Below, piece by piece: positions 5,047-52,322 of a stretch of 64,000 bases of DNA. This DNA is from Somniosus microcephalus (Eukaryota), in NCBI GenBank assembly GCA_052327205.1, contig CM126220.1, positions 48,422,001 to 48,486,000 of the forward strand, read 5' to 3'. The notes beneath the pieces are model-generated. The model was not told the origin of the DNA, made no database searches, and saw only the letters and a list, made by a program, of their open reading frames with translations. The position numbers and the translations under genes were made by a program. Each line of letters starts with the position of its first letter. Position 1 is the stretch's first letter.

Positions 5047-8000
5047 ATGCCGAAGACTGGCAATATCACTGCCTTCGATAATGCAATAGAAGACTGGACC
5101 ACGTATGTGGAAAGAGTCGAAGTATTTTGCAAGGCAAACGAAGTAGCCGATGAGAAAAAGGCATCGGTACTACTCAACTTAATGGGCGCAAGAACGTACG
5201 GCCTATTGCGGAACCTGATTACTCCAGCCAAACCGATGGCGAAGAGTTTTAACGAAATTGTTGATATCCTACAGGAACACCTAAATCCTACACCGCTGCT
5301 GATAGCAGAAAGATTTAAATTCCACAGGAGAAATCAGCATAAAGATGAGAGCAATGCTGATTACCTTACGGAACTATGCAAGCTATTAAAGCACTGCCAG
5401 TTCGGAGCAGGACTGGCAGATACCCTATGGGACAAATTTGTCTGTGGACTCCTGAGTGAAGGAACCCAGAAGAGGTTACGCTCAGAGAAAGAGCTGACGC
5501 TAGATAAGGCTTTCAGCATGGCAGTATCGTATGAAGCAGCAGCAAGGGGAGCTGCGGAAATACAGCAAAAGCCACAGGAATACGGCACCCACGAAATGAC
5601 ACGGGGATTTGAAAAATGTTATCGCTGCGGCAGAACAACCCATGACCAGAAGGACTGCTGGTCCAAGGACAAAATATGCAGGCAATGCGGAAAGATGGGA
5701 CACATTGCATGAGTTTGCAGGTCTGGGAAGAAGACTAACGACAACAAAAAGGCTACTAAGGAACAGTACAGGAAAGTACAAAAGATGACAGACAGTAGTT
5801 CCGAAGACCAGATGAGCGATAGTGAATTCGGGAACAAGAGACTAAGCTGTCTCAAACTTCACAACGTAATCGCAAAAGAGGATTACCGAACCATTTGGGT
5901 CACCCTCACGATAGCAGGGTCCCAAGTCAAAATGGAATTGGATACAGGATCAGCCCTGACCATCATGAATCGACGAGACTACGAGCGGCTATTCTCACAC
6001 ATACCCTTGAAAGAGACATCCATTGTCTTGAAGACGTATACGGGGCAAAAAGTATACCCCAGAGGGAAAATAAGGGTGCCTGTCGAATACAACGGCAAGG
6101 AAGTACAGAAATTGTATCTGTACATACTGCAAGATGGTGGACCACCGTTATTGGGACGTGAATGGATCAGAAAGATAAGTTTAGACTGGCACTCCATTCA
6201 GGCACTGACGGTGGCTGGTAAAAAGGATGACAACATCACACCTGGACGATTGTCAAAAATCTTAGCTAATGCCAAAGAGGTATTTCAACAAGAACTGGGA
6301 ACTCTTAAAGGCGTAACCGCCTCGATAAAAATAGAAGAGAATGCAATTCCCAAGTTTTTCAAAGCAAGACCGGTACCATATGCAATTCGCCCAGCCGTCG
6401 AGGCAGAGCTGGAGAATCTGGAGAATGCAGGCATGTTATCTAAGGTAGACTGGAGCGAGTGGGTGACACCCATCGTTCCTGTCATGAAGAAAACGTTAAA
6501 CAATAAGTCTGAGGAGCCAAGGAAGGTTCGCATCTGTGGGGACTTCAAGGTGATGGTGAACCCAGTCCTTCACACAGTACAATATCCTCTCCCGAGGATA
6601 GAAGATATTTTCGCCTCACTATCTGGAGGGAAGCGTTTTACAAAAATTGACCTAGCACAAGCATATTTGCAGATGGAGGTTGAAGAATCCTCTAGGAAGT
6701 ATCTCACGATAAACACTCACAAAGGTCTTTACCAGTATAATCGACTGGTATTCGGAGTAGCATCAGCTCTGGCGATATGGCAAAGAGCGATGGAACAAGT
6801 CCTGCAAGGGATTCCGGGGACTCAGTGTTACTTGGACAACATCCTAGTGACAGGTGAAGATGACAGTGAACACCTTGCCAACCTAGAGCAGGTGCTCACT
6901 AGACTAAGAGAACATGGGCTACGAGCCAATCGCCCCAAGTGCGAGTTTTTTAAGAAACAGATATCGTATTGTGGCCACGTGATTGATGAAGAGGGGTTAC
7001 ATAAGTCCCCTGACAAAATTGAAGCGGTAGTTAAGGCTCCAGCGCCTGAAAATGTGTCGCAACTGAGGTCATTCCTCGCATTGGTGAATTACTACCATAA
7101 GTTTTTGCCGAATTTGTCCACAATTCTGCACCCACTGAACGCCCTACTACAAACTGGAGTAGCATGGAAATGGAGCGATGAATGTAAACGGGCCTTTCAG
7201 AAGAGTAAAGACCTAATCACTTGAGTATTGGCTCACTACAACCCATCACTACCGATAAGACTGGCGTGTGATGCGTCTCCCTACGACATTGGAGCGGTAC
7301 TGTCACGTAAATTCCTTGATGGTTCAGAGAGGCCGATAGCTTTTGCGTCACGCTCGTTAACTTCAGCCGAGCGTAACTACGCCCAGATTGACAGAGAGGC
7401 CCTCAGCCTGGTGTGGGGGGTGAAGAAGTTCAATCACTACCTGCACGGTCAGAAATTTACTCTACTAACTGATCATCAACCTCTTGTCTCCATTTTCAAC
7501 CCTCAGAAGGGCGTCCCGATAATGACAGCACAATGGCTACAGAGGTGGTCCCTTTTCCTAGGGGCACACCAATATGACATCGAGTACAAAGGAACTAAAC
7601 AGCATGGGAATGCTGATGGATTGTCGCGCCTACCGTTGCCGACGGTGGAAGAAGCACCTGCAGTGGATCCAGTGGAGATATTCCACTCGACCACAGTCGC
7701 ATGTCTACCTGTGATGAATGCAAACATAGAAAAGGAAACACAAAATGACTCGACACTCTCCTGGGTCTATGATTTAACGGTGAAGGGATGGCCAGCACAT
7801 GGCGGACCACTGTTGCCAGCATTCTCGCTGAGAAGAGAACAGCTGTCAGTGTGCAGAGGAACCTTGATGTGTGGATCCAGAGTAGTAATTCCACCCAAAT
7901 TGAAGGATAGAGTGCTCAATGAGCTTCATGAGGGTCATCGGGGAGGGGTAAAGATGAAGAACTTAGCCAGAGCGTTTATGTGGTGGCCGGGAATCGATAG

Positions 8001-8571
8001 AGAAATCGAAGAGATGACCAAGAGCTGTACAGGATGCCAGAAGGTCCAAAACGCCCCACCACAAGCCTCTCTACATCCATGGGAATGGCCCTCATCTCCA
8101 TGGCAAAGGGTGCACATTGATTTTGCTGGTCCATTTATGGACTCGATGTTTTTAATTGCGGTGGATGCACATTCAAAGTGGCCAGAGGTAATAAAAATGT
8201 CCTCAACCACCACAGAAAAAACTATCACAGTCTTACAAACCATATTCACCAGAAATGGGCTGCCTGAACAGATTTGCTCTGACAATGGACCACAGTTTGT
8301 GTCTGAAGAGTTCCGGAGGTTCTTAAAGAACAATGGTGTTAAGCATTACACATTCGCCCCATATCATCCAGCCACCAATGGATTGGCTGAGAGGTTCGTT
8401 CAAACATTCAAGAAGGCTATCAAGGCAATGTGTAATGAAGACATACCCCTACAACACAAGGTGGATAACTTCTTGTTTGCCTACCGGAATGTGACACATG
8501 TGGTTACCAACCAAACTCCAGCCATGATGTTCTTCAATCGAAGACTACGATGCCGCTTGGATTTGGTTAAG
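5047..8571 (+). pseudogene. Gypsy gag-pol (Gag, CCHC x2, PR, RT, RNase H, IN) with in-frame stops at 5710 and 7222
   Basis: CYRCGRTTHDQKDC, MELDTGSA, CYLDNILV, ACDASPY, HEGH...CTGC, SDNGPQF, NGLAERFV; the three ORF segments share one frame. Confidence 0.92.
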
Positions 8572-9189
8572 CTGCAGTATGAGTGGCAGAAGGTTGCTGA
8601 CCTTCAATTGAGGAGACTGCAGATGACCTTGGAGGGCGGCCTCGAGCAGCTCTGGGCCTAGAGGGCCCGACTTCAGACTGCACCATCTCGACCTGGCCTG
8701 CAGCAGTCTGGCTGGCTGACAGGCAACAGCAAGGGCACTGGCAGGGTGTCAGGGGTCGGAGTAGGAATGCTGTCATCCTGAGAGACAGCAGCTTCATGTT
8801 CCATAGAGCCACTACCACTCTCTCAGGGCGGTGCCTCAGCAATCCTACTCATCTGTTGGAGAACAGATTGATGGGCTGCTGTGATGCCTGATAAGTGGGC
8901 TAGAGGGAACAACGCTTTTTTCCTGCCTGTACCTGTTACTATGCCATTCCACCACCTGGCAACAGACTTTGTTTCCTTCCTCTACATTAACTGTGCCAAC
9001 CCACTGGGTTTGCAAATATTTTGTTATCCAAACAACTTATTCCAGCTCTTTAAGGAATGTTTATACATGAGTTCCCGTCCCTCCACACTCCCCCTCTGGT
9101 AAGCTCCCAACACCAAGTCTGAGCCAAGGACCATTCACACGATGAAAATGAAGCTGATGCTGCAAAATCAGCCAGGATCCGCACACTTG

Positions 9190-12224: not shown

Positions 12225-12380
12225 GGTGGCGTGTGGGTCCAACAAAAACAGGGTCAAAGCGAAGGATTTTCAGAAAGTTTCGGAAGCAAGGTTGTTGGTG
12301 GCGAGGTGACAAGAATGAGGGAGCAAGTTTCAGAGGACGGGGTGTGGCAGAGCAGAGGGAGCAGGGTACAAGGAGTAACC
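12225..12380 (-). mobile_element. Old L2 LINE ORF2 C-terminal remnant (source of the adjacent minisatellite)
   Basis: Minus strand encodes SDTGLLLVPCSL...PLKLAP...FRNFLKILRFD, resembling the L2 end (RSSNSGLL.IP...LWNSLP...FK.LLKTYLFD) seen at 28430-33050. Confidence 0.6.
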
Positions 12381-14691
12381 CAGTATCAGAGGGGGCAGGG
12401 TACAAGGAGTAACCCGGTATCAGAGGGAGCAGGGTACAAGGAGTAACCACCGGTATCAGAGGAGAGGGAACAAGGGGAGAGGGAACAAGGAGTAACCTGG
12501 TATCAGAGGGAGCAGGGTACAAGGAGTAACCCAGTATCAGAGGAGAGGGAACAAGGAGTAACTCGGTATCAGAGAAGAGGGAACAAGGAGTAACCCCGGC
12601 ATCAGAGGGGAAGGTACAAGGAGTAACCCGGTATCAGAGGAGAGGGAACAAGGAGTAACCCGGTATCAGAGGAGAGGGAACAAGGAGTAACCTGGTATCA
12701 GAGGAGAGGGAACAAGGAGTAACCCCGGTATCAGAGGAGAGGGAACAAGGAGTAACCCCGGTATCAGAGGAGAGGGAACAAGGAGTAACCCCGGTATCAG
12801 AGGAGAGGGAACAAGGAGTAACCCCGGTATCAGAGGAGAGGGAACAAGGAGTAACCCGGTATCAGAGGAGAGGGAACAAGGAGTAACCCGGTATCAGAGG
12901 AGGGGGAACAAGGAGTAACCTGGTATCAGAGAAGAGGGAACAAGGAGTAACCCCGGTATCAGAGGAGAGGGAACAAGGAGTAACCCGGTATCAGAGGAGA
13001 GGGAACAAGGAGTAACCCGGTATCAGAGGAGAGGGAACAAGGAGTAACCCGGTATCAGAGGAAAGGGTACAAGGAGTAACCCGGTATCAGAGGAGAGGGA
13101 ACAAGGAGTAACCCGGTATCAGAGGAGAGGGAACAAGGGGAGAGGGAACAAGGAGTAACCCGGTATCAGAGGAGAGGGAACAAGGAGTAACCCGGTATCA
13201 GAGGAGAGGGAAGAAGGAGTAACCCGGTATCAGAGGAGAGGGAACAAGGAGTAACCCGGTATCAGAGGAGAGGGTACAAGTAGTAACCCTGGTATCAGAG
13301 GAGAGGGAACAAGGAGTAACCCGGTATCAGAGGAGAGGGTACAAGTAGTAACCCTGGTATCAGAGGAGAGGGAACAAGGAGTAACCCGGTATCAGAGGAG
13401 AGGGAACAAGGAGTAACCCCGGTATCAGAGGAGAGGGAACAAGGAGTAACCCGGTATCAGAGGAGAGGGAACAAGGAGTAACCCGGTATCAGAGGAGAGG
13501 GAACAAGGAGTAACCCGGTATCAGAGGAGAGGGAACAAGGAGTAACCCAGTATCAGAGGAGAGGGTACAAGGAGTAACCCCGGTATCAGAGGAGAGGGAA
13601 CAAGGAGTAACCTCGGTATCAGAGGAGAGGGAACAAGGAGTAACCCGGTATCAGAGGAGAGGGAACAAGGAGTAACCCCGGTATCAGAGGAGAGGGAACA
13701 AGGAGTAACCCAGTATCAGAGGAGAGGGTACAAGGAGTAACCCCGGTATCAGAGGAGAGGGAACAAGGAGTAACCCCGGTATCAGAGGAGAGGGAACAAG
13801 GAGTAACCCGGTATCAGAGGAGAGGGAACAAGGGGAGAGGGAACAAGGAGTAACCCGGTATCAGAGGAGAGGGAACAAGGAGTAACCCGGTATCAGAGGA
13901 GAGGGTACAAGGAGTAACCCGGTATCAGAGGAGAGGGAACAAGGAGTAACCCGGTATCAGAGGAGAGGGAACAAGGGGAGAGGGAACAAGGAGTAACCCG
14001 GTATCAGAGGAGAGGGAACAAGGAGTAACCCGGTATCAGAGGAGAGGGAAGAAGGAGTAACCCGGTGTCAGAGGAGAGGGAACAAGGAGTAACCCGGTGT
14101 CAGAGGAGAGGGTACAAGTAGTAACCCTGGTATCAGAGGAGAGGGAACAAGGAGTAACCCGGTATCAGAGGAGAGGGAACAAGGAGTAACCCGGTATCAG
14201 AGGAGAGGGAACAAGGAGTAACCCGATATCAGAGGAGAGGGAACAAGGAGTAACCCGGTATCAGAGGAGAGGGAACAAGGAGTAACCCGGTATCAGAGGA
14301 GAGGGAACAAGGAGTAACCCGGTATCAGAGGAGAGGGAACAAGGAGTAACCCGGTATCAGAGGAGAGGGTACAAGGAGTAACCCCGGTATCAGAGGAGAG
14401 GGAACAAGGAGTAATCCCGGTATCAGAGGAGAGGGAACAAGGAGTAACCCGGTATCGGAGGAGAGGGAACAAGGGGAGAGGGAACAAGGAGTAACCCGGT
14501 ATCAGAGGAGAGGGTACAAGGAGTAACCCGGTATCAGAGGAGACGGTACAAGGAGTAACCCGGTATCAGAGGAGAGGGAACAAGGGGAGAGTGAACAAGG
14601 AGTAACCCGGTATCAGAGGAGAGGGAACAAGGAGTAACCCGGTATCAGAGGAGAGGGTACAAGGAGTAACCCGGTATCAGAGGGAGCAGGG
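12355..14691 (+). repeat. ~32-33 bp minisatellite GGTATCAGAGGAGAGGGAACAAGGAGTAACCC, left part
   Basis: About 70 head-to-tail near-identical units with no unique spacers; occasional 14-bp sub-duplication GGGGAGAGGGAACAA. Confidence 0.97.
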
Positions 14692-14926
14692 TGATGCGCC
14701 ATCAATTACTCAAAAGACTGAGGTTAAGCGAGTAACAACCAGGCTTTTATTAACTAAAGAATGAAGGTCTAGTCTCGAGTGGTCGACCCGTCCAGAATAC
14801 TAAGGGACTGGGAGGTAGTCACTTATATACCTGGAATAGTGGGAGGAGTCAGCCGAGGCATGTCCAGACCTGTACCTAGTGGAATACACATACACATACA
14901 GACAGGTATAACAGTGGTTTACCACA
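14692..14926 (-). repeat. 3' LTR of Gypsy B
   Basis: Direct repeat of 21137-21371; TATA (GGTATATAAG) and AATAAA on the minus strand. Confidence 0.95.
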
Positions 14927-15450
14927 TTCACCCCTTGTTTAATAATGAGTCCGGCGGGGTGAAGTGTATTTAAAAGTTCGTGTATTGGAGTCTCTCCGGA
15001 GGTCTTGTCTGCCGCTGTGATCGACGTGGCGACGGCAGGGGTGGTGGAGCTTCTGGCGTCGCGTCCCGTGTAGGCTGGGGTACTGGAGTGTAGTCCTCGT
15101 GGGTGACGGTCCAAGGCGAGCCGGCTGCTGGGGTTGGATATCGGGCCGTGGGGGGGGTGGCAATGGGTAGTGGGTTACAGTGGTCCCCGAGAGTGTCGTG
15201 GGGGGGGGTGGTAATGGGTAGTGGGTTACAGCGGTCCCCGAGGGTGCGAGGTCTCGTATGGAGACTGTGTCCTCCCGCCCGTCCGGGTACGCAATGTAAG
15301 CGTACTGGGGGTTGGCGTGGAGGAGGTCAACCCTCTCGACCAGGGGGTCCGTTTTATTGGTCCTCACGTGTCTTCTCAGTAGTACCGGCCCTGGGGACGT
15401 CAGCCATGGCGGTAACGCTGTCCCCGATGTGGACTTCCTTGGGAAGACAA

Positions 15451-17360
15451 GGGATATACAAAAATGCATTAGAAATAAAAGAGGGGCTTTTGGCAGTTAC
15501 AAAAGACTAAAGACAGAAGAAGCCCTAGAGGAGTATAAAAAGTGCAGGGGCATACTTAAAAAAGAAATTAGGAGGGCGAGGAGGGGCCATGAAATAACAC
15601 TGGCGAGCAAAATAAAGGAAAATCCTAAGATGCTTTATAAGTATATTAAGGGCAAGAGGATAACCAGGGAAAGGGTAGGGCCCATTAGGGACCAAAGTGT
15701 AGAGCCAGAGGATGTAGGCGGGGTTTTAAATGAATTTTTTGCATCTGTGTTCACTATGGAGAAAGACGATGCAGACATAGAAATCGGGCAAGGGGACTGT
15801 GACATACTTGAACATATTAGCATCGAGAGGGAGGAGGTGCTAGCGGTTTTAGCGGGCCAAAAAGTGGATAAATCCCCAGGCCCGGACGAGATGTATCCCA
15901 GGCTGCTGTGGGAGGCAAGGGAGGAGATTGCAGGGGCTCTGACACTAATTTTCAGAACCTCTCTGGCCACAGGGGATGTACCAGAGGACTGGAGAACAGC
16001 TAACGTAGTACCATTATTCAAGAAGGGTAGCAGGGATAAACCAGGGAATTACAGGCCAGTGAGTCTAACATCTGTGGTGGGGAAATTATTGGAAAAAATT
16101 CTGAGGGACAAAATTAATCTCCACTTGGAGAGGCAAGGATTAATCGGGGATAGTCAGCATGGCTTTGTCAAGGGTAAATCATGTCTAACAAATCTGATCG
16201 AATTTTTCGAGGGGGTGACTAGTGGGGTGGATGAGGGAAATGCTGTGGATGTGGTTTACATGGACTTCAGTAAAGCTTTTGACAAAGTCCCGCATAGGAG
16301 ACTGGTCAAGAAGGTAAGAGCCCATGGGATCCAGGGTGCCTTGGCGCGTTGGATCCTAAACTGGCTGAGTGGCAGGAGGCAGAGGGTGATGGTCGAAGGT
16401 TGCTTTTGTGACTGGAAGCCTGTGTCCAGTGGGGTACCTCAGGGATCGGTGCTGGGTCCCTTATTGTTTGTGATCTACATAAATGATTTGGATGAGAATG
16501 TAAAAGGTATGATCAGTAAGTTCGCAGATGACACGAAAATTGGTGGGGTGGTAAATTGCGAGGAGGAAAGCCTCCGGCTACAGGACGATATAAACGGGTT
16601 GGTCAGATGGGCGGAAAAGTGGCAAATGGAATTTAACCCTGAAAAGTGCGAGGTGATGCATTTTGGACGGACAAATAAGGCAAGGGAATACACAATGAGT
16701 GGTAGGACCCTAGGAAGTACAGAGGGTCAGAGGGACCTTGGTGTACATGTACATAGATCCCTGAAGGCAGCGGAGCAGGTAGATAAGGTGGTTAAAAAGG
16801 CATATGGGATACTTGCCTTCATTAGCCGAGGCATAGAATATAAGAGCAGGGAGGTTATGATGGAGCTGTACAAAACGCTGGTGAGGCCACAGCTGGAGTA
16901 CTGTGTGCAGTTCTGGTCACCTCACTATAGGAAGGATGTGATTGCTTTGGAGAGGGTGCAGAGAAGATTCACCAAGATGTTACCTGGGATGGAGCGCCTC
17001 AGCTATGAAGAGAGGCTGGACAGGCTGGAGTTGTTTTCCTTGGAGCAGAGAAGGCTGAGGGGGGACCTGATTGAGGTGTACAAAATAATGAGGGGCATAG
17101 ATAGGGTAGATAAAGAGGAACTTTTCCCCTTAGTGGGGGGGTCAATAACAAGGGGGCATAGATTCAGGGTAAGGGGCAGGAGATTTAGAGGGGATTTGAG
17201 GAGGAACTTTTTCACCCAGAGGGTGGTTGGAATGTGGAACTCAATGCCTGAAAGGGTGGTGGAGGCAGGAACCCTCACAACATTCAAGAAGCATTTGGAT
17301 GAGCACTTGAAATGCCATTGCATACAAGGCTATGGACCAAATGCTGGAAAATGGGATTAG
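15451..17360 (+). pseudogene. CR1 ORF2 reverse transcriptase fragment (open frame, no endonuclease, no native start)
   Basis: KSPGPD, NYRPVSLTS, DFSKAFDKV, GVPQGSVLGP, KFADDTK; no internal stop over ~636 codons. Confidence 0.93.
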
Positions 17361-17446
17361 ACTGGACAGGGATGGATGGGCGGTGCAGACACGATGGGCC
17401 GAAGGGCCTCTTTCTGTGCTGTAAAACTCTATGACTCTATGACTCT
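15451..17446 (+). mobile_element. 5'-truncated CR1 LINE nested in the Gypsy B integrase; flanking AAGACAA repeat
   Basis: AAGACAA at 15444-15450 and 17447-17453; (ctctatga)n tail; removing it restores the integrase sequence HEKMF-VFPRKS. Confidence 0.95.
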
Positions 17447-17776
17447 AAGACAAACATTTTCTCGTGAGGGGTGGCATTGGTGGCAGTGCAGAGCAGTGAC
17501 CGAATCGAGTGGAGCGCATCGGGGAGCACCTCCTGCCAGCGGGAGGTCGGAAGGCCCCTAGACTTTAAGGCTAGTAGGGCGGCCTTCCAAACTGTTGCAT
17601 TCTCTCTTTCCACCTGTCCGTTCCCCCGGGGGTTGTAACTGGTGGTCCTGCTTGTGGCTATACCCCTAGCGAGCAGGTACTGGCGGAGTTCGTCGCTCAT
17701 AAACGATGAGCCCCGGTTGCTATGGATATAGCTGGGGAAACCGAACAGGGTGAAGAGGCTGTTCAGACATTTAATG

Positions 17777-17978
17777 GTGTGGAGATGCCGGAGTTGGACT
17801 GGGGTGGACAAATGTAAGAAATCACACAACACCAGGTTATAGTCCAACAGCTTTATTTGAAATCACAAGCTTTCGGGGCGCTGCTCCTTCTTCACCTGAA
17901 GAAGGAGCAGCGCCCCGAAAGCTTGTGATTTCAAATAAAGCTGTTGGACTATAACCTGGTGTTGTGTGATTTCTTACA
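17777..17978. mobile_element. Short Penelope-type inverted (foldback) insertion with a ~15-bp flanking duplication
   Basis: Perfect inverted arms 17811-17894 and 17897-17980; TTCAGACATTTAATG at 17762-17776 and 17979-17993; contains CTGAAGA...GAAA. Confidence 0.85.
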
Positions 17979-20900
17979 TTCAGACATTTAATGACTGTGG
18001 CACTGGTCATGTCCGGGCAGGGGATAGCGAACGGGAAATGGGAGTACTCGTCAATGATGTTGAGGAAGTACACATTGCGGTCGGAGGAGGGGAGAGGCCC
18101 TTTAAAATCGACGCTCAGGCGTTCGAAAGGGCGAGTGGCTTTTATCAGGTGGGCTCTGTCTGGTCTATAAAAGTGCGGTTTGCACTCAGCGCAGACTTGG
18201 CAGTTCTTGGTCATGGTCCTGACCTCCTCAATGGAGTAAGGCAGGTTGCGGGCCTTGATGAAGTGGAAGAACCTGGTGACCCCCGGGTGGCAGAGGTCAT
18301 TGTGGAGGGCCCTCAGCCTATCGATCTGCGCACTGGCGCAGGTGCCACGCGATAGGGCATCTGGGGGTTCATTGAGCTTCCCAGGCCGGTACAAGATCTC
18401 GTAATTGTAGGTGGAAAGTTCGATCCTCCACCTCAAGATCTTGTCATTTTTGATTTTGCCCCTCTGCTTGTTGTTGAACATAAAAGCAACTGAACGCTGG
18501 TCAGTGAGCAGGGTAAATCGTTTTCCGGCCAGTTAGTGCCTCCAATGACGCACAGCCTCCACAATAGCCTGGGCCTCCTTCTCGACCGCGGAGTGTCTGG
18601 TCTCCGGGCCCTGGAGGGTTCGTGAGAAGAATGCCACAGGTCTCCCCGCCTGATTAAGGGTGGCGGCCAGAGCGAAGTCGGACGCATCGCTTTCCACCTG
18701 GAAGGGGATGGATTCGTCCACTGCGTGCATGGTGGCTTTGGCAATGTCCTCCTTGATACGGTGGAAGGCCGAGCGGGCCTCTGCCATCAGGGGAAAAGAG
18801 GTGGATTTGATCAGCGGACGGGCTTTGTCTGCATAGTAGGGGACCCACTGGGCGTAGTAGGAAAAAAATCCTAGGCACCTCTTCAGAGCTTTTAGGCAGT
18901 GGGGCAGTGGGAGTTCCATAAGGGGACGCATCCGGTCCGGGTCGGGACCGATGACCCCGTGTTCCACAACACAGCCAAGGATGGCGAGGCGGTCTGTGCG
19001 GAATATGCACTTCTCCTTGTTATATGTCAGGTTCAGGAGTTGGGCGGTGCGGAGGAATTTCTCGAGGTTTGCGTCATGGTCCTGCAAGTCATGGCCGCAG
19101 ATGGTCACATTGTCTAGGTAAGGGAAAGTGGCCTGCAGCGCGTTTTGATCGACCATCCGGTCCATCTCCCTTTGGAAGGCGGAGACCCCGTTGGTAACGC
19201 CAAAGGGAACCCTAAGGAAGTGATAGAGGCGGCCGTTTGCCTCAAAAGCAGTATACTGGCGGTCTTCGGGGCGGATGGGGAGCTGGTGGTACGCTGATTT
19301 CAGGTCAATGGTCGGAAAGACGCGGTACTGCGCGATCTGGTTGACCATGTCAGCTATGCGGGGGAGTGGGTAGGCGTCCAGCAGGGTGTAGCGGTTTATT
19401 GTTTGGCTGTAGTCGATGACCAGGCGTTGTTTCTCGCCGGTCTTAACGACCACAACCTGGGCTCGCCAGGGGCTGGAGCTGCCCTCAATAATCCCCTCCT
19501 TCAGGAGCCGCTCCACTTCAGTTTTGATGAAAATCCTGTCCCCGGCACTGTATCGCCTGCTCTTTGTGGCGATGGGCTTACAGTCGGGGGTGAGGTTAGC
19601 AAACAGTAGCGGGGGTGGGACTCTGAGTGTGGAGAGGTTGCATCTGGTGCGCGGCGGGCAATTTGGAGGCTGCTGGCTGCAGACTGTGAGTGGGGGGAGG
19701 GGGCCACCGTACGCCATCGTAACGCTTTTGAGGTGGCACTGGAAATCCAACCCCAGTAGAACGGCAGCGCAAAGTTGGGGCAGGACCAGGAGTTTAAAAT
19801 TATTGAACACAGTCCCGTCTACTACTAGTGTCACCACGCAGTAGCTGCCAATGTCCGCTGACTGAGACTCGGCGGCCATAGAAATCCGCTGGTGCGCAGG
19901 CAGGACTGGGAGAGAGCAACGCCGCACCGTGTCGGGGTGGATGAAGCTCTCTGTGCTCCCGGAGTCAAAAAGGCAGTTTATTGCATGGCCGTTTACCTTA
20001 ACGTCCATTTTGGACCGAGCTAGTTGGTGCGGTCTCGTTTGGTCCAACGTAACAGAGGCCAGTGTAGGGGTCGGTGTGTCGCTGCGGGTATCAGATGGGG
20101 GGGGGTTGGCAGCCTGCTGCGTCCCGGCTGGTGTCCAAGATGGCGGCGTCCATGATTCCCATGTGGCTGGAGTCGTCCAAGATGGCTGCTGCTGCGGTGG
20201 TTCGCACATGGCTGGGGAGGCCCAAGATGGCGGCCCGCACGGCCCACACGCGGCGCTGTTGGGGGCCCAAGATGGCGGCTCGCACGGCCCACACGCGGCG
20301 CTGCTGGCGTTCGGGGTGGCTTTGGCCTTGCAGATGCTAGCGTAGTGTCCCTTTTTCCCGCAGCCCGAGCAGGTCGCATTCTTCGCCGGGCAGCGCGCTC
20401 TGGGGTGTTTGGCCTGGCCACAGAAGTAGCATTTCTGGCCTTGGGATACTGCTGTCTGGCTTTGGGACACTGCTGCAGTGGTTGGGCCGTTGTTGGGCTG
20501 TGGCTGGGGTGGCACGGTGCTATGGGGCTGTCCTACCGTGTCCCAGGTTGTCGTTCCCCGCGGCGTCCACGGTGCAGAGGACTAGGCATCCATGCCCCGG
20601 TAGGCTGCGTCCAGCGTTAGTGCGATTTCGGAGGCTTTGTCGAGGGTGAGGTCACTCTGCTCCAGCAGTCGCTGTCGGGTGTAGTTGGACCTGTGGCCCG
20701 CTACGAAGGCATCCCGGATCAGTTCCTCCGTGTACTTAGTGGACGTTACCACCTTACACCCACAGGCCCGGCCAAGCACGGACAGTGCTTGGAGGTATTC
20801 CTCAGTCGATTCCCCAGGTTGTTGCTTGCGACTCCCCAGGAGGTGCCTGGCGTAAACTTCGTTCACAGGGTGCGTGTACTGGGTCTTGAGGAGCTGGAGG

Positions 20901-21136
20901 GCGGCTGTGTACGAGGTCGCGTCCCGGATGACTGAGTACACTCGGTGGTTCACCTTGGAGATCAGGACAGACAGTTTGTTCGCATCCGTTACGACCGCAG
21001 TGGAGGCAGTCAGGAATGCCTCGAAGCACATGAGCCAGTGAGCAAACTTGGTGGAAGCGTCCGCTTCCCGACTGTCCAGGTCCAGGCATGCTGGTGTGAG
21101 GATCTTCTCCATTATAAAAAATTTAGTTAATAAAAT

Positions 21137-21371
21137 TGATGCGCCATCAATTACTCAAAAGACTGAGGTTAAGCGAGTAACAACCAAGCTTTTATTAACT
21201 AAAGAATGAAGGTCTAGTCTCGAGTGGTCGACCCGTCCAGAATACTAAGGGACTGGGAGGTAGTCACTTATATACCTGGAATAGTGGGAGGAGTCAGCTG
21301 AGGCATGTCCAGACCTGTACCTAGTGGAATACACATACACATACAGACAGGTATAACAGTGGTTTACCACA
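21137..21371 (-). repeat. 5' LTR of Gypsy B
   Basis: Direct repeat of 14692-14926; gag ATG lies only ~25 nt downstream. Confidence 0.95.
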
Positions 21372-22038
21372 CAGGGTACAAGGAGTAACCCGGTATCAGA
21401 GGAGAGGGAACAAGGAGTAACCCGGTATCAGAGGAGAGGGAACAAGGAGTAACCCGATATCAGAAGAGAGGGAACAAGGAGTAACCCGGTATCAGAGGAG
21501 AGGGAACAAGGAGTAACCCGGTATCAGAGGAGAGGGAACAAGGAGTAACCCGGTATCAGAAGAGAGGGAACAAGGAGTAACCCGGTATCAGAGGAGAGGG
21601 AACAAGGAGTAACCCGGTATCAGAGGGAGCAGGGTACAAGGAGTAACCCTGGTATCAGAGGAGAGGGAACAAGGAGTAACCCGGTATCAGAGGAGAGGGA
21701 ACAAGGAGTAACCCGGTATCAGAGGGAGCAGGGTACAAGGAGTAACCCTGGTATCAGAGGAGAGGGAACAAGGAGTAACCCGGTATCAGAAGAGAGGGAA
21801 CAAGGAGTAACCCGGTATCAGAAGAGAGGGAACAAGGAGTAACCCGGTATCAGAGGAGAGGGAACAAGGAGTAACCCGGTATCAGAGGAGAGGGAACAAG
21901 GAGTAACCCCGGTATCAGAGGGAGCAGGGTACAAGGAGTAACCCCGGTATCAGAGGAGAGGGAACAAGGAGTAACCCAGTATCAGAGGAGAGGGAACAAG
22001 GGGAGAGGGAACAAGGAGTAACCCGGTATCAGAGGAGA
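21372..22038 (+). repeat. ~32-bp minisatellite, right part
   Basis: About 20 further units; register continues across the CAGGG TSD. Confidence 0.97.
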
Positions 22039-23065
22039 TTAATTATTTTAAAAATACCTATTTAAAAAATTATTTATACAAGACATGTGCTTAACAAGAA
22101 ATATAAGCTTAGTGTCTACTTTAAAACAATGTTTACAGCACAGAAGGAGGCTATTTCACCCACTGTGTCTGTACCACCTCTGCTACAGAAAAATAAAATG
22201 AACCCCACTGCCCGGCTCTACCCACTCAGCCGGCTATCTTCCTAGTAATTTTGCTCTGGGATCATTGCACCTTTCTGGTTTTACAGAGGTAATCTACAGG
22301 CTTTGCTTCAGTCCGTCAACAGAACGGACTCAAATCAGTATTGTGAGTGCAGAAAAGCTGATATTAGAACATTGAGCCTCCACCTCTTCCAGCCTTTGTG
22401 CAGCTTCCTTGGGGATAATTTTCAACTTGCCACCTATGCACAACACTGGTGTTGCAGATCCTCCACCTTTTATAGAAACAGCATGGAACTCAATGGAATT
22501 ATAATTGGACAGTTTCTATAATGGGAAGTTTTATGTACAATGAAAATCTACGTTTTCCTATGTTGTGTACAGATGTTCTCTGTAGGTTCCTCACTGCATT
22601 ACTTCCACGTCGCTCCATAGTGGGATCACTCACGTCTGAGGATCTGGAGAACTCTGTATTTCCCTTTTTCAGGCTGTTTGGCGACCTTACCCCAGCCTCC
22701 AAAGAATTACAACTTCATCCCCAAGTTTTAACTTTAATTCTTTAGTTCCACCATTTTTCTTTCTTTCATCTTGTTGGCTTAACCTTTTTTGGGGATTTGG
22801 TCCCAGTTTTCACTTTTGATTTTGCCCTGAATTTTAATTATTTTTTCATGATGTCCATTTCAGGTTCCTGCAAGTTATGTTGGACTCACGGGACTTTATC
22901 TCAGCCCAATCTATTTCTGGGCCTGGCATTTCCTTCTGGTGGCAACACAAGTACATAGGATCTCCTTAGCCCCCTGGTTGTGTCACTGGATGTCTTCATT
23001 CTCATTTTATGTAATTTGCTGTTTATTCTTTCTCAAATGTTCCAGTTTAGGCAGCAATATCAGCA

Positions 23066-28333: not shown

Positions 28334-28536
28334 AACTATTTTGTTTTCTCATCCTTGTTTTCACATCCCTCCATGGCCTCGCCCTCCCTTATCTCTATAA
28401 CCTCCTCCAGCCCTACAACCCTCCGAGATCTCTGTGCTCTTCAATTCTGGCCTCTTGCGCATCCCCGATTTGAATCGCTCCATCATTGGCGGCCGTGCCT
28501 TCAGCTGCTTTGGCCCTAATCTCTGGAACTCCCTTC

Positions 28537-28790
28537 TGTTAAGTCTGTGGGTTGTATTATAAATAATCACAGACTCCACTGTTAACAAAATAAAACACGT
28601 CTTTACTATTCAGAGGCTCGGGCGATTCCTGATCTAGTTAACGTATCACAACCCTTATATACTGGTGTGGTCACTATCGGTATTACAGTATACATGAGCC
28701 AATAAATAGTGCCACCCTAAAGTAGTGCTCTTAAAGGCGAACGGTCACATTCTATAGTTCCCTTAAAGGTAAACGGTTACATACACAACA
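28537..28790 (-). repeat. 3' LTR of element C
   Basis: 28629-28790 is identical to the 5' LTR; 28537-28628 is divergent. Confidence 0.93.
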
Positions 28791-29178
28791 CTCCTCCCTT
28801 CCTAGCTTATTACTTACAGAATCCCGTTAAACATACAATCTTCAATTTTATATAAACAGTTTGCAGATATACTCTCGATGGAGTCAACGTCATATAACAA
28901 TTTACAGATATACTCTCGATGGAGTCAACGTCATATAACTTCATGTTTAACATAACATAATAACATATATAACTTCATGTCAAAACAGATCACAGATTCA
29001 GTCTCTGTGGAAAACAGTTCATAGATTCAGTCTCTGTGGTGTAGTCGGTTCACATTGCTGGAGTGACTCATTCAATAGTCCTTCCATGGGTTTAACAGTT
29101 TGAACTTCCGAACTGAATTGGCTCCGTTCGGAGGGACCACGTGTGTGATCTGGTAGAGGTAATAATGGTTCAGATGGG

Positions 29179-31884
29179 TCATCTTCTGTTTCGACTTTTC
29201 CTTTTCTGCTTCTTGGAGACTCTCTGGGCTCCACTGTCAGCTGCCAGCTGCATGCGCAGTTCCTCCTTCTCTTCCTCCTTTTTCCGTAGTAGAGCCACCT
29301 TCTCCCGATGTTCCGTAGACTTTCGGTGCTCCTCCATGATTTCTGTATGGTGGGAGTCGAAGTTACAAGTTGGGCAGGACAGGACATAGTAATATTCGGA
29401 GTCGTCCTGAGCTAGGCCAGCGAGAGGGTCTTCTATGTCCTCCCTACCCAGCTGGACGTCAGCCAGCTTTTGTTCCAAATCCAGACATCTTTCCTGAAGA
29501 GACTTCTTCACGTGTTCCGCTTCCTCTAACTTTTTCTGGGCTTTCAGCAAGTTGTTTACTAATGACCTCATTTGTGATTTTAATACTTCAACTTCCTTTG
29601 GAGATTGATTGATCGGACTATTCAATCCCTCTACCGGAGCAGTTGTTTCAGCGTTCTGTTGTTCAACCTTGACATGAGTCAGCGTACTTTTGGTATCTAA
29701 GGGTTGCTCTGCTGCCATCTTCTCAGTCTGTGTTGCAACCTCGGCTATTTCAATAACTTTTGAGAGCTCCAAACCCTTCTCCTCTGACGATTTAAGCTCA
29801 TGTTCATGGCCCATTCTTACGGTCTCTGTGTTTCTTACAGTTCCCTTTTCTTCCACTGAAAAGATTTCCAGTTGCATCTGTTCTTCAAGTCGTTGGACCT
29901 CGGCCATTGCCGCTTCATATTTATTTTGTGTTTCCTTTAATAATTTAACGAGTTCTTGGACATCCTGTATTCCCTGTTCTGGTATGTCTTCCACCACTAA
30001 TTTTTTTCCTATGGATTTAATCCCTAACGATGAGTCAGCCTTGGCCTGAAGCTCATCAAACATTTCCTGCAGACTTTGTAATTCTTGCTTATGGTCAACC
30101 TTTAGTCGTTCATGTTCAACCTTTAGTTGCTCATATGCTTTCACTAACACGAGCTTTTCGGAAGTTGCCAAGTTAACCTCTTCCAGGATTGTAGTCCGAG
30201 CCTGTTCATACTGTTCTTTCAACTCGTTACACTCTGCTTGCAACAAGTCGTAGAGGTGAACTGGAATACCATCCTGACTTCTTGAAGATTCCTCTTCCTT
30301 TGGATCGTTCTGTGTATATTCTAGTTCCTGAACAGCCTCAGGGAGATGTGATTGGTACTTGGCCACGATGGCTCTATGGTCGCTCTCTGCTTGAGCGAGC
30401 TGTCTCTGTTGTCTTTCCAGGGACTCCCATTCGGTGTCCCAGAACTTTTTCACCTTTTCCATCTCTTGTAGGAGACGGGCACTCAACTGTTCTAATTGTC
30501 GTTGTACTTTGACATAACGTTGAGTTCTAGCCCGGTGTTCCTCCGTAATGCATATGTCTGTAGCTTGAACAGACTCAGAATTCTCTGTCTTTATGCACGC
30601 CATCGATTTCCCAACCTTAGTCCGTGAGTTCATGTTAATCTTGTTTTTCATACATAAGCTGGACTTATCGTCTTCCGGCTCGGAGTCTGAGCTGCTTGTC
30701 TGCACCGAGTCCTCACTCGTCATTGCTTGTCGGTAGTGCCATTCCATGTCTATTTTCTTGATCCACTCCCGTCCCAGAAGTGGTGGTCCTCCCTCAGGTA
30801 GTACGTACAGATACATTCGTGGGTGTTCTTTACCCCTATCTCTCACCTTGACTCGTATTTTTCCCAGGGGGTATACATGATGCCCCGTGTATGTCTGTAA
30901 TACGAATTTGGTATTTCTTAAGGGTATGTGAGAGAATAGCCGGTGATAGTCCTTTTGGTTGATGACGGATACAGCTGATCCCGTGTCCAGCTCCATTCGT
31001 ACTTGGACTCCCGCTATTTTTAGTGTGACCCAGATCAACTGTAGATCAGTTACTTTACCCACATGGTGGATTCTCAGACTATCCAGCTCCTGGCTGTTTG
31101 GGTCTGAGTCTGAATTTTGTTCGTCTGAACTCTTTTCAGCCACCTGATGCACCTTGTTGTACTTTCCTTGTGGTGGTGGCTTCCTTTGCTTGTTGGTCTT
31201 CTTTCCGGACCTGCATACCTTCGCGATGTGACCCAGTTTGCCACATTTCCTGCACTCTTGGTTCTTAAACCAGCACTGATTCTGGTCGTGCGTTGTCTTT
31301 CCACAACGGTAGCATTTGGGAGTGCTTGCTGTAATTTGGTCCACCCCGAGTGCCGCCGCCTTTAGCTGCATTTCCGCCGTCCCTTTCGCTGCGGCTTCGT
31401 GCGATGAAGCTATGAGGACAGCCCTGTCCAGTGTGAGGTCGTTTTCTTCCAGAAGTCGCTTCTGCGTTCCTTCTTTGGCCAAGCCGCATACGAACTTGTC
31501 CCGCAGCGCCTCTGTCAAATTCCCTCCAAACTGGCAGTATTTCGCTAGCTTACGCAGTTCGACTAAGTATTCCGCATTGCTTTCATCTTGCCTCTGGGTT
31601 CTGGCGTAAAATTTAAATCGTTCAGCCAGCATCAACGGTGTGGGGTTCAAGTGATCCTTCAACACTGTTACGATCTCTTCGAAGGTCTGGTCCACTGGTT
31701 TAACTGGTGCTATTAGATGTTTCAAAAGCCCGTATGTTTTTGCTCCCATCGAATTTAACAAAGTTATTGCCTTGTTGTCATCCTCAATTTCGTTGGCTAC
31801 GCAATATATTTCTATGCGTTCCACATACGTGGCCCAGTCTTCTATTTCTGCATTAAAGTCATTAATATTTCCTCGCTTAGGCAT
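29179..31884 (-). CDS. Gag-CCHC-protease fused to a ~500-aa coiled-coil and zinc-finger cargo (901 aa from ATG 31884)
   Basis: Uninterrupted ORF; MPKRGNINDF Gag homologous to elements A and D; CYRCGKTTHDQNQC; MELDTGSA; after GREWIKKIDMEW the sequence becomes E/K/Q/L-rich heptads, then CPTC-x12-H-x5-H. Confidence 0.88.
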   Translation of the reverse strand: MPKRGNINDFNAEIEDWATYVERIEIYCVANEIEDDNKAITLLNSMGAKTYGLLKHLIAPVKPVDQTFEEIVTVLKDHLNPTPLMLAERFKFYARTQRQDESNAEYLVELRKLAKYCQFGGNLTEALRDKFVCGLAKEGTQKRLLEENDLTLDRAVLIASSHEAAAKGTAEMQLKAAALGVDQITASTPKCYRCGKTTHDQNQCWFKNQECRKCGKLGHIAKVCRSGKKTNKQRKPPPQGKYNKVHQVAEKSSDEQNSDSDPNSQELDSLRIHHVGKVTDLQLIWVTLKIAGVQVRMELDTGSAVSVINQKDYHRLFSHIPLRNTKFVLQTYTGHHVYPLGKIRVKVRDRGKEHPRMYLYVLPEGGPPLLGREWIKKIDMEWHYRQAMTSEDSVQTSSSDSEPEDDKSSLCMKNKINMNSRTKVGKSMACIKTENSESVQATDICITEEHRARTQRYVKVQRQLEQLSARLLQEMEKVKKFWDTEWESLERQQRQLAQAESDHRAIVAKYQSHLPEAVQELEYTQNDPKEEESSRSQDGIPVHLYDLLQAECNELKEQYEQARTTILEEVNLATSEKLVLVKAYEQLKVEHERLKVDHKQELQSLQEMFDELQAKADSSLGIKSIGKKLVVEDIPEQGIQDVQELVKLLKETQNKYEAAMAEVQRLEEQMQLEIFSVEEKGTVRNTETVRMGHEHELKSSEEKGLELSKVIEIAEVATQTEKMAAEQPLDTKSTLTHVKVEQQNAETTAPVEGLNSPINQSPKEVEVLKSQMRSLVNNLLKAQKKLEEAEHVKKSLQERCLDLEQKLADVQLGREDIEDPLAGLAQDDSEYYYVLSCPTCNFDSHHTEIMEEHRKSTEHREKVALLRKKEEEKEELRMQLAADSGAQRVSKKQKRKSRNRR

Positions 31885-32724
31885 CTTCTTCTCTTTTTGA
31901 GAACAGTACAAGTATTACTTTACTTATTATTAATTTTCTTCTCTCTTCTTGAGAACACACCAGCCTTTCTGAAAAATCTTATTACTTTTCTGAAATTCTT
32001 AATAATTTCCAAGATGGCGGTTTCCCGCTTCTTCCTTCTTCTTCAGCGGTTTTCCCCGAAAAATGGCAGCTTTCCCGCGCTTCTCGCTCTCCCCGCCCAC
32101 TTCAATGGCGGTTTTCCCGCGCTTGGCGGTCTTCACCCGGTCCCCCGACGCCGTCTGTCAGCCCGAGTGCGGCCCTTATCTATAATGCGATCGCTGGATC
32201 GCGAAGCGGCTGCCGGCCCTTTATCTGTAGATCCGATCGCTCTCGCGGCTCTCGGCCCTTATCTGGAGATGCGATCGCTGGCTTGCAACGCCTCCCGCTC
32301 GGCTCTGGCTCCCCCGCTCGCGCGGCTCTCGGCTCTGACACTCTCGCGCCTACTCGCAGGCTCAGCGCTTCGTGGCAGCGGTTGCTGCACGGCTTCTCAC
32401 ATTGCCCGCGGTCCGGCTGTCACCCGACGCCGTTGGACCCGAATGCTTTGCCCTTCTCCTCCAAATACTTCTACCCCGTTTTTTTTTTTAAATTTATTTG
32501 TTTTAACTACTCACAGTCTCTTCGGCCGCCTTGTTTTAGGCTGATTGGCTCGCTCAAGATGTGGTAGCAGGGTAATCTGTGCCTGTTGCTGCCGCAGCTT
32601 TGCTGTTAATCTTCCAGCTTCCAGTAAGTACTATCCTTTTAGTAGACGGAGCCTCGTGTTTTCTTTTTGAAGCTCTCTGCTACTGGTTAGTCTTGCCGCA
32701 GGGTACGATCGGACTCGTCGCCAC

Positions 32725-32978
32725 TGTAAAGTCTGTAGGTTGTGCAGTAAATAACTTCAGAGACTTTAGAAGTACAAACAAAACAGGTCTTTACTATTCG
32801 GTGGTCTGGGCGATTTCTGATCTAGTTAACGTATCACAACCCTTATATACTGGTGTGGTCACTATCGGTATTACAGTATACATGAGCCAATAAATAGTGC
32901 CACCCTAAAGTAGTGCTCTTAAAGGCGAACGGTCACATTCTATAGTTCCCTTAAAGGTAAACGGTTACATACACAACA
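32725..32978 (-). repeat. 5' LTR of element C
   Basis: Adjacent to the PBS; ends TGTTGTGTATGTA...GACTTTACA (element sense) are shared with element D. Confidence 0.93.
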
Positions 32979-35900
32979 CCTTCCTAAACCTCTGCCTCTC
33001 CACTTCTCTCTCTTCCTTTAAGACGCTCCTTAAAACCTACCTCTTTGACCAAGCTTTTGGTCATCTGTCCTAATATCTCCTTATATGGCACAATGTCAAA
33101 TTTTGTTAGATAACGCTCCTGTGAAGCGCTATATAAATGCAAGCTGTAGTTGTTGTTGTTGTGTATGTATGTATTAATATATAAGTAATACGCCTTTCCT
33201 AACTTGGCTTGCTAAATCTTGATACAAATTTTAGAATTGTCTTGGATTGTAGTATTATTAGATTTAAACTCAAGCCCAGATAAAGGTTTTCTATCCCTCC
33301 GGGCATTTTATATATCTGGCAATAATGGGCCAAGTGATGAGATTTAATAAAGCAACAATTTTGCCAAACGTTTGCATGCTCGAGAGTGATGAATGATATT
33401 CCACTTTGGAAGCAAGTTCCTTTGTTAAAATGACAGCAATGTTGGATTAATTGCATCATGTGCTCTCCAAGAACTGTAATTCTGTATTTAGGGGCCAATG
33501 GGATTTAATGGCTACACTGTGTAACACTAACAGGAATTGCTTCATAATTCAGAGACTTTAGGTTTATATGTTGCTAATGTCTGACATGTGAACCTGCCTT
33601 TGTTATGAATGTTGTCCGTTCTCAGCCAGGATATTTGGTGGAGTGTTTCATGACTATGGAGAATCTTGCTGCATGGGGAAAAACTAAAGGTAAGTCCATT
33701 TACTCATTTCACTTTCCATTTCTGGCATTTGTGCAGAGGTCCAGGGTTTGGAGCTCAACTATTGCCCACGCTGCTCAAAGAAGCTGTGTGAGATAAGCAG
33801 TTTCATGTGTTGTGCTGTGTTGTGTGGTTAGGGGAGAGAAGACACAGAAATTTTAAAAAACCACATAAATCAAATGATGTTATCAGGGATCGATGTACAT
33901 ATTTAACGAAGGACCCCACTGATTTTCAGCAGGTATCCCTCTCACCTGCTCAGAAGAGCAAATTAAAACCGAAGACTGGTGAAATGAGAGGGTCGTCAGC
34001 GGGTAAGTCCCCTGGGTCTTTATAACTGCCTGCCCACCTGGTTTCCGTAAAGAAGATGGTGGTGGTTATTCTGTCAATCACTTCATTTTTCTTGTTAAGT
34101 CTTCACCGATAGAGGATCCCAATCAGTTTTTATAAAGAGGAAGTAGCAGTTTTATACTAGATCATCATAAGGCAGTCCTAATGGGGAACGATAACTTATG
34201 TCTTAACCCCTTTTACATGCAGGAACAAAACCACTAACCTCTTGACTTTAAGCAACTAAGGGATTTGACGTCTACAGCATTTATTTGAAAATGGTAAATT
34301 CAGAAGCTTTATCAGAATCTTTTAGAATCAAGACCAAGTCATTTTACCAACTTAACAAACAAAAGGAGGTGGAGGAGGATGGGTGGGGAGACCACAATAA
34401 ACTGACAACACAAACTCTATTATGAAATTATTAACTAAATATGGACCAAACATCTTCTTCAGATTAAATGGATTTATTCTAATGAGTCCAAGAAATAAAT
34501 AACATCTGTTCTTTCAATGACAAATTCTAGTAAAATTAATTCCTTATAATAATATAAAATTAATAACATATAAAGCAGAAAAATAGTACAGAAAGTATTT
34601 TATAATGCTTTTTATGTTCTTTAACTGCAGATCCAACTTCGGATTCAGCACAAATTCTCATTGGCCTGTGTCACACCATCGTAATTCTCATCTTGATGAA
34701 CCTGGATGAACAGCAAGGGCCCATAGTGCAGAACACCACCAGGGCACTGTATCTTGGATTCAACAAAATGAGGATGCAAAGCAAGAAAGATCAATTCCAT
34801 TCAGTGCCGCTGCCATGCCAATGTTAACACTCCTGCTTAGTCACTCACCGATTTGAAATACAGATGCTCTGGATAAATTGTGCAGCATGTTTCTCGAACG
34901 ATGGATGTTCTCAAATGATTAAATATAAGATCACAAGGATTTTATGACTTCCACAGTATGGGAAAGGAGAAACAGGATAGGGGGAGAGAAAAAGAGGAGA
35001 TTCGAACTACCCCACCCCCATCCAGTATTGTTACACCCATGACAGACTTGGGGTCAATGTGCGATTGTGGATGCTACTCGCATATTGTTGGTCTGTAACA
35101 ATTTGCAGTGGGGTCTTTTACACACAATTTGTGTTGTGAAGAATGTTCCTTTGCAACCTTTGTTTCCAATGTTGGCTGCTGGCTAAGGAGCCCAAGGACC
35201 AAGATCTCAGGAGCCCAGCCTTTAAAAGAACCTATGATTCAGGAACATAGATCCCATGTGCAATCAGTGGAGACAGTCTCCTCTCATATGGTGCGGGTGA
35301 TGGGAAAGTTGGAGAAATCTACAACTTGTATTTGCAATACAATGCAGGAGGGATGGCATAATAGCTAATGGCATAGTTAGCTGCAACTTCTGATGAAGTA
35401 TTTGCATAATATTTTTGATAATACAGAAAGACAGAGATAATCCCATCTTTAATATACAATCAGCATATTAAGTTGGCATAGACATCAGCGCAGTTACTTA
35501 AAAACTGCAGACTTGGGATGGGGTTGATTGGTGCATTGAGTCAGCACACTTATTTTTTTGCTTCAGGTAGTTGGATTAGAATCAAACCCAGACTGGTGGG
35601 CTGAAAGTCTGCTCTCTCTATCCTGGCTGTAGGAGGCGATAGGTTTGCAAAGTCTCAAACCAGTTCCTAGTGCGTATGCATCCACCGCATAAAATTACCC
35701 ATATTTCAGCATAAATTGGCACCAAAATGGCAATTTAACCCCGTTCACAAGAATGTTGATGCAGTACAGGGCACCGTAATAGATTAAACAACAGTGAGCG
35801 GAGTAAAGGGAGCATTAGTCTGAACTGGGTCATGCTGTACCTGATTTGAGAATGCTCCATGTTGATACTGGATACCAAAAGAAGTGGTTAATTCCCGAGC

Positions 35901-52192: not shown

Positions 52193-52204
52193 CTTGGGCA
52201 TTTT

Positions 52205-52322
52205 AAAATGGCGCCTCCCGTGCTTTTGCTTCTTCCCCAATGGAATAAAATGGCGCCTCCCGCGCTTTTGCTTCTTCCCCAATGGGATAAAATGGCGCCT
52301 CCCGCACTTTTGCTTCTTCCCC
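52205..52322. repeat. Three ~43-bp tandem repeats in the Gypsy D leader
   Basis: aaaatggcgcctcccg(c/t)(g/a)cttttgcttcttcccc x3; two related copies in the element A leader (4960-5035). Confidence 0.9.

Follow-up and report, generated by a model that had tools for sequence, protein, structure and literature searches.

A candidate primer site complementary to the LTR is conserved across a Gypsy clade present in Somniosus microcephalus and points to probable self-primed reverse transcription

The whole stretch of DNA analysed here (64,000 nt of the Somniosus microcephalus genome, hereafter the window) contains on its minus strand a Gypsy LTR retrotransposon, in which the place of a tRNA primer site is taken by 14 nt that perfectly complement a segment within the element's own LTR. 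Such an LTR-complement primer site was confirmed to be real, conserved, and clade-wide. It is held in a fixed register to the LTR end, its two strands covary between families, and these families constitute a lineage separate from the chromoviruses of the same genome. We consider it very likely that the clade self-primes its reverse transcription in some form. This would be a known kind of process (self-primed reverse transcription) with a new geometry, in a lineage that is not filed under Tf1/sushi.

Layout of the element and its two complementary arms

The features of the element are compiled in Table 1. In the sense of the element, the 5' LTR is followed by one A, the 14-mer, nine bases, and the gag ATG at 21112. 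The order protease-RT-RNase H-integrase was detected with Pfam in the window frames and in 11 full-length relatives, and the Ty3 RT was the best PDB match (E = 4e-40). Together with the TG...CA LTR pair, the target-site duplication, and the polypurine tract, this identifies the element as Ty3/Gypsy. The near-identity of the LTRs indicates a young element, and the studied copy contains in-frame stops at 20584-20582 and 18535-18533. The three bases directly following the arm, denoted the RCC position, are GCT in the 5' LTR and GCC in the 3' LTR as well as in 25 of the 30 closest copies. The insertion site of the element is a 32-bp minisatellite array with 15/17-nt subunits (~12300-14690 and 21377-22040). 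Its integrase is broken by a hairpin insertion (17762-17993) comprising an 84-bp perfect inverted repeat (17811-17894 / 17897-17980) bordered by a 15-nt direct repeat, which we take to resemble a Penelope-like terminal hairpin. A LINE fragment (~15447-17445) also sits in the integrase in the opposite orientation; it includes an RT (open frame 15300-17360, + strand) and has a short tail of tandem repeats. Other Gypsy elements of the window were located at 47948-52939 (-), 28536-32979 (-), and 5038-8661 (+), the first two having a TGG primer site; the LTRs of the one at 47948-52939 measure 182 nt and are 98% identical, and its open frame has 1,229 codons.

Table 1. Positions of the features of the studied element in the window.
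Feature	Position	Strand	Remarks
5' LTR	21137..21371	-	235 nt, TG...CA; 233/235 identical to 3' LTR
3' LTR	14692..14926	-	arm and AATAAA present; complementary partner downstream absent
TATA box (TATATAAG)	21267..21274 (LTR 98-105)	-	sequence
LTR arm, candidate self-primer	21190..21203 (LTR 169-182)	-	predicted priming end is its 3' end, 21190
AATAAA inside arm	21196-21191 (LTR 176-181)	-	
RCC position directly after arm	21187..21189	-	in most relatives the 5' strand of another hairpin
Single-base spacer, LTR end to primer site	21136	-	base is A
Candidate primer-binding site, 14-mer	21122..21135	-	perfect complement of arm; TGG absent
gag-protease-RT-RNase H-integrase, one frame	17840..21112	-	
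Remainder of integrase	14942..17808	-	broken by hairpin insertion (~17777-17978) and LINE fragment
Polypurine tract	14927..14940	-	purine-rich run abutting 3' LTR
Target-site duplication CCCTG	21372..21376 and 14691-14687	-	

The sequences 21122-21135 and 21190-21203 are exact reverse complements over 14 nt, without extension on either side, and enclose a 54-nt loop. The sequence-only reading of the window, which had given the letters of the + strand, was correct in describing this complement as spanning AATAAA. It had also placed the partner beyond the start predicted from the TATA box, and the LTR coordinates agree: transcription would start at ~21244 as judged from the TATA spacing, and the arm begins ~40 nt beyond TATA+30. 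A perfect 14-mer complement anywhere in the LTR has a chance probability of ~2e-6, or ~1e-5 when six start offsets are allowed. Folding of the entire 176-nt region gave a z-score of only -1.39, with 20 of 200 shuffles folding equally well, and further perfect 14-nt inverted repeats exist elsewhere in the repeat-rich 64-kb window. Folding energy was hence dropped as evidence for the duplex, and the case stands on position and covariation. A normal TGG site in other copies, which had been named beforehand as evidence against the idea, was found in none of the copies and relatives examined. It is likewise missing from the studied copy, and its masking or mutation in that copy alone was rejected, all relatives lacking it.

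Conservation and covariation of the arms

A DNA search of the same genome gave 1,511 candidates, of which 40 were scored and 30 loci were returned, and both arms were unchanged in all 30. As these are the closest copies, they only show that the state is not peculiar to the studied insertion. Gag searches of this genome with three distant proteins added 90 further loci of six families (B, C, D, D2, E, and F), and a metagenome scan provided the best 80 of 502 confirmed loci, 48 of which had a gag start. An unanchored scan was applied to the 51 loci with enough upstream DNA (7 own-genome and 44 metagenome; four were too short), and in 40 of them the longest perfect inverted repeat exceeded those of every one of 30 dinucleotide shuffles (means of 5.9-7.8 nt). 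One representative per family was hand-picked, giving 35 in total (7 own-genome and 28 metagenome); the 20 metagenome loci omitted from the 48 comprised four short ones, one false gag call, and 15 extra copies of included families. The primer site was anchored on the letters CA-N-T-rich, and the arm was taken as the best complement 20-80 nt upstream. Under this rule, 31 of the 35 representatives scored at least 10 of 12 arm-primer-site pairs, a match count that is inflated by choosing the best complement and that includes related families, which are not independent. The remaining four were L117 and L136, which had no anchor (the former has little upstream DNA and the latter a 9-bp repeat), L164 (6/12), and L165 (7/12). 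A bulged 13-bp stem was found for L164 in the unanchored scan; L164 and L167 represent a family with an apparent 4-5 nt bulge near the priming end of the duplex, followed by a 13-bp perfect stem.

Watson-Crick pairs occupied 369 of the 372 cells of the 31 families and G-U pairs none, and 29 distinct primer-site 12-mers were counted. For pairs 5-12, the match was 7.94 of 8 within the own family and 4.25 of 8 between families, and the conserved end covaries too (L116 and L140). A compensatory swap was present in the RNA reads at 21125 and its partner 21200. Covariation of the two 14-mers, which the sequence-only reading had put forward as a check, was thus observed, with compensatory changes keeping the complementarity across families whose RT identity goes down to ~53%. 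The stem length was 11-19 bp, varying at the distal end, and the loop was 24-69 nt. A spacer of one base after CA was obtained with the anchor rule in all 31 scored families, and LTR ends were checked from LTR pairs. In loci holding the end of the second LTR, the repeat stops at CA or about one base later, except for a few tandem or chance extensions. Since this stop fixes the LTR end, the register to it is independent of the pairing. L092, L093, L103, L120, and L091 form a related family set whose arm ends in GTTAAA or TTTAAA. Three metagenome contigs (L114, L118, and L138) carry internal or LTR-leader sequence at both ends, like head-to-tail tandems or circular assemblies.

In the predicted arm helices, 0 of 394 pairs were G-U as compared with 47 of 336 in the loop helices, and many of the swaps between arm and primer site are of the transversion type. 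Both features are what a primer site copied from the primer would show. It is established for tRNA-primed elements that the primer serves as a template during plus-strand synthesis and that its sequence is thereby written into the primer site in each cycle, and we infer that the same occurs in the studied clade. Arm changes were examined in 136 copies, and those in the 129 scorable ones were mostly single mismatches, as expected post-insertion. One single copy (L106) has one change in both LTRs with a matching primer-site change, and in another (L098) both LTRs share a change that the primer site lacks; these single cases fit a two-cycle route.

The bases after the arm were R in 30, C at +2 in 28, and C at +3 in 27 of the 31 families, a motif that was not used in arm placement. 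These three bases pair above loop shuffles in 25 of the 31 families (mean 0.70 vs. 0.32), and the pairing usually corresponds to a predicted RCC/GGY hairpin stacked on the arm helix. The inner hairpin of family A was not above the control (0.41 vs. 0.36). A tRNA scan gave 63 genome matches, mostly in one tandem array, and the 30 loci taken from these matches represent three distinct tRNA genes; the longest run complementary to tRNA was 5 nt, for which three genes are too thin a set to count. The tandem array lies on contig C24 of this genome (~42.91-43.16 Mb) with ~1.6-kb spacing, and the loci examined are tRNA-Cys(GCA).

The arm ends in AATAAA or ATTAAA in 19 of the 31 families. Among the other 12, a signal-like hexamer is located in the loop in six, and none of the hexamers searched was found in six. 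For the studied element, AAUAAA was predicted to be paired with a probability of 0.93-1.0 in the 5' context, against 0.03-0.10 in the 3' context. The sequence-only reading had suggested masking of the 5' poly(A) signal beside or in place of self-priming. Masking stays plausible as a second role; it did not hold as the common core, since arm and signal do not overlap in 12 of the 31 families. A separate AATAAA is located 26-28 nt into the loop in L093 and L120, which makes the priming role separable from the poly(A) signal.

Lineage and position of the arm in the transcript

In an RT-RNase H tree, 61 non-redundant rows of the clade formed one branch (SH-aLRT 99), apart from the chromoviruses of the same genome. 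This was a quick, unrooted tree with two outgroup sets, made without named references, in which 95 rows were reduced to 65 at 90% identity. The RT identity of the clade was ~30% to two chromodomain-bearing chromovirus families and 26-29% to two TGG-/Mag-like rows. At E 0.01, no Chromo match was detected in the 11 full-length relatives (11/11) or in the two integrase pieces of the window, consistent with the earlier remark that no chromodomain is visible. Some chromoviruses have lost the chromodomain, so its absence alone does not exclude kinship. The clade may be sister to the chromoviruses and hence share a self-priming origin with them.

According to the protein labels, relatives occur in cartilaginous fishes, cnidarians, echinoderms, tunicates, insects, and nematodes. 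The closest proteins point to a cartilaginous fish as the host of the studied element. The relatives, known here as proteins, are labeled Mustelus, Scyliorhinus, Hypanus, Mobula, Oculina, Actinostola, and Anneissia, and further Apostichopus, Styela, Ischnura, Vanessa, Cyamophila, Trichinella, and Trichuris. A first look gave 162,000-187,000 Gag candidates in the 6.4 Gb genome, and 1,115 RT relatives were detected at E 1e-60. A pattern scan of viral contigs gave 16 matches, none of which was a relative, and the Atlas gave just generic retrotransposon Gag clusters. The sequence YLDN at the RT active site was considered as a mark of the clade and rejected, since YLDD occurs in some relatives and YLDN is shared by TGG-bearing elements of the window. 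It occurs in the Gypsy at 47948-52939 and a 5-kb copy, as in the studied element, and a literature search on YLDN gave nothing relevant. Clade motifs were not found in the searched supplement files of PMC6238403, PMC13524379, and PMC8556966. Motif searches of papers and supplements matched no named clade; Repbase and GyDB may already name it.

The distance from the TATA box to the arm end was 85 nt in families A and B, 86 nt in C, 103-104 nt in D, and 99-101 nt in D2, all in the own genome. Families E and F have just a weak TATA-like motif, at 76-77 nt, and such a motif is located upstream in only 3 of 24 metagenome families, so that the case for an internal arm comes from five families of a single genome. 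Chromodomain-bearing Gypsy elements of the same genome were used as a control, for which LTR pairs were usable in three of seven stretches; the remaining four had no usable pair owing to tandem repeats or inserts. In all three chromoviruses (L233, L234, and L235), an 11-nt complement begins exactly 30 nt downstream of the first T of TATTTAAG, matching at 11, 10, and 9 of 11 positions. With one base separating their LTR end and primer site, this is the Tf1 layout; the loop is 155-161 nt, and AGTAAA follows 70-76 nt beyond the arm. In contrast, the arm of the studied clade is 11-19 nt long and ends at the poly(A) signal 85-104 nt after TATA, with the much shorter loop described above. The arm being so far from TATA, together with the missing chromodomain and the separate RT clade, supports the earlier suspicion of a route differing from Tf1/sushi.

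Two RNA runs (X7 and X8) were selected by species label, and their short reads are mostly 90-95% alike to the window and hence represent mixed families. When the sense strand was defined as the first mate on +, strong sense transcription was observed across gag in both runs. Two bins upstream of the arm, at bin 21229-21247, the sense depth increases from 49 to 82 in X7 and from 65 to 117 in X8. The sense/antisense ratio of X8 climbs from 0.20-0.26 to 0.36, 0.47, and 0.63; that of X7 is noisy. This depth pattern is suggestive of a start upstream of the arm. If the complement were the first ~11 nt of the transcript, the start would coincide with it; TATA spacing and RNA depth point to a putative start ~40 nt earlier. 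No start pile-up appeared in the LTR among the RNA rows listed for X7 and X8, and no poly(A) end among the 24 of 138 loose read ends listed. Antisense reads are abundant over the LTR (21137-21371) in both runs and outnumber sense reads in X8, and they probably originate from solo LTRs within host transcripts.

Known systems and models of priming

The tRNA-primed Gypsy elements of the window, which we take to be Mag-like, resemble the studied element in their short LTRs, single gag-pol frame, and host. They differ in having a TGG primer site, which the studied clade lacks, and in belonging to another RT branch (29% identity). The poly(A) hairpin of HIV-1 conceals AAUAAA by base pairing close to the 5' end of its genomic RNA, and a similar masking is predicted here. 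Unlike in HIV-1, the partner strand in the studied element lies outside the LTR and coincides with the primer site, so that the masking helix is possible only at the 5' end. As in Tf1 and Tf2 of S. pombe, Tj1 of S. japonicus, and Tf1/sushi, there is no tRNA site, and a primer site adjacent to the LTR perfectly complements an LTR segment. For Tf1, the accessible parts of PMC7175516 and PMC4600332 describe the first 11 bases as pairing with the primer site and RNase H as cutting between bases 11 and 12. The second helix at the junction also resembles the U5 stem-loop that is mentioned in a cited title. The studied clade differs from Tf1/sushi in lacking a chromodomain and in its RT, which is ~30% identical and lies on a separate branch.

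In plants, self-priming was predicted where complementarity of 10 bp or more begins 0-5 nt beyond the LTR (PMC6317226, in the excerpts available), an arrangement that the studied element shares with Tcn1 (Gypsy) and TAR/Houba/Osr-1 (Copia). Unlike the studied element, these are plant lineages, of which Tcn1 belongs with Tf1/sushi and TAR is a Copia. TAR is hence a precedent outside Tf1/sushi, making a further origin of self-priming less surprising. The fungal Copia element GalEa, with its Conserved Hairpin Site, likewise has no tRNA site and an inverted repeat at the primer position. As far as the available text of PMC5445492 goes, both of its arms are internal and an LTR complement was not found, whereas the partner is in the LTR in the studied element. 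The published accounts consulted, in their accessible portions, tie Gypsy self-priming to Tf1/sushi chromoviruses (PMC3601003, PMC6934838, PMC6238403, PMC4600332, PMC6317226, PMC7175516, PMC13524379, and PMC5445492), and a full-text literature search did not find self-priming in an animal Gypsy clade outside Tf1/sushi.

We favor, as reasonably probable, self-priming from an internal primer, a segment of R whose end is the arm/RCC junction at the 5' end of the RNA. Transcription would start ~30 nt after TATA, some 40 nt upstream of the arm. The arm would fold onto the primer site to form an 11-19 bp duplex, which would end one base from the LTR end and be stacked on the RCC-led hairpin. The RNA would then be cut at the arm/RCC junction, probably by the RT/RNase H of the element in analogy with Tf1, leaving a primer of ~55-75 nt with an unpaired 5' leader. 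Minus strong-stop DNA would copy the 54-nt loop and be transferred via the stretch of ~10-25 nt that separates the cut from the poly(A) site, and plus-strand synthesis would rewrite the primer site from the primer, by which the two arms would evolve together. As a side benefit, the duplex may hide AAUAAA in the 5' LTR only.

The position of the arm can also be read as Tf1-type priming, in which the copied RNA begins at or just before the arm from a second start, the 5' end of the transcript is the primer, and only the lineage is new. Bases that we presume to be initiator-like do precede the arm by a few bases in families A and C, and a TATA-like motif that would fix a start upstream is missing from 21 of the 24 metagenome families. 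It is also the sole mechanism with experimental support, as given in the available parts of PMC7175516 and PMC4600332. In five families, however, a canonical TATA is retained 85-104 nt upstream of the arm end, whereas the same-genome chromoviruses have TATA+30; the sense RNA depth already climbs two bins upstream of the arm, and the stem varies in length at its distal end. We hence regard this reading as unlikely. An upstream start is no obstacle to another proposal, that priming occurs from a 3' end: the 3' LTR copy of the arm (R), or a short LTR transcript, would be trimmed to a protected run of three or four A by host 3'-end processing or exonucleases and not by RNase H, and all of R would be used for transfer. 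This proposal fits the templated covariation equally, and arms do end in three or four A in most families, as AATAAA/ATTAAA in 19 of 31. It is nevertheless improbable, since L116 and L140 have the duplex although their arms do not end in an A run, and family A lacks a second poly(A) signal 10-30 nt before the arm end, so that cleavage should fall downstream of the arm. The short, bounded loop and the junction hairpin further suggest local folding at the 5' end.

It may also be supposed that the duplex acts merely in masking the 5' poly(A) signal or in regulating gag translation, and that a tRNA fragment or another host RNA is the primer. G-U pairs, which were absent, should be tolerated in a helix of purely structural function, and such a helix would explain neither the 29 different 12-mers, each matching its own LTR, nor the register fixed to the LTR end; moreover, 12 of the 31 arms lack a canonical signal. 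This explanation is thus very improbable, even though the masking is predicted to be strong and confined to the 5' LTR, the ATG is 9 nt beyond the duplex in the studied element, and the tRNA scan of three distinct genes is too thin to exclude internal tRNA matches. A chance inverted repeat in an A+T-rich stretch, amplified with one family, has practically no probability. Although 12 of the 14 bases are A or T and the folding z-score is low, its expectation of ~1e-5 is against it, and the compensatory changes across distant families refute it. The competing models predict sharply different RNA ends.

The internal-primer model can be extended to a full combination, namely an independent origin of self-priming in an animal-wide Gypsy clade, a long capped leader as the primer, an internal cut at a helix junction located on the poly(A) signal, one duplex both priming and silencing 5' polyadenylation, and two strands matched by copying. 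This combination is offered tentatively, as it may well not hold in its entirety. The present finding accounts for some of the elements that annotation classes as 'no PBS found' and provides a simple rule to find such elements. If true, it would bear on how LTR elements avoid ending at their own 5' poly(A) signal, and possibly on their escape from tRNA-fragment control. A second, very abundant and animal-wide self-priming clade would also inform the question, raised in the accessible part of PMC3601003, of which of the two, tRNA priming or self-priming, is the ancestral state.
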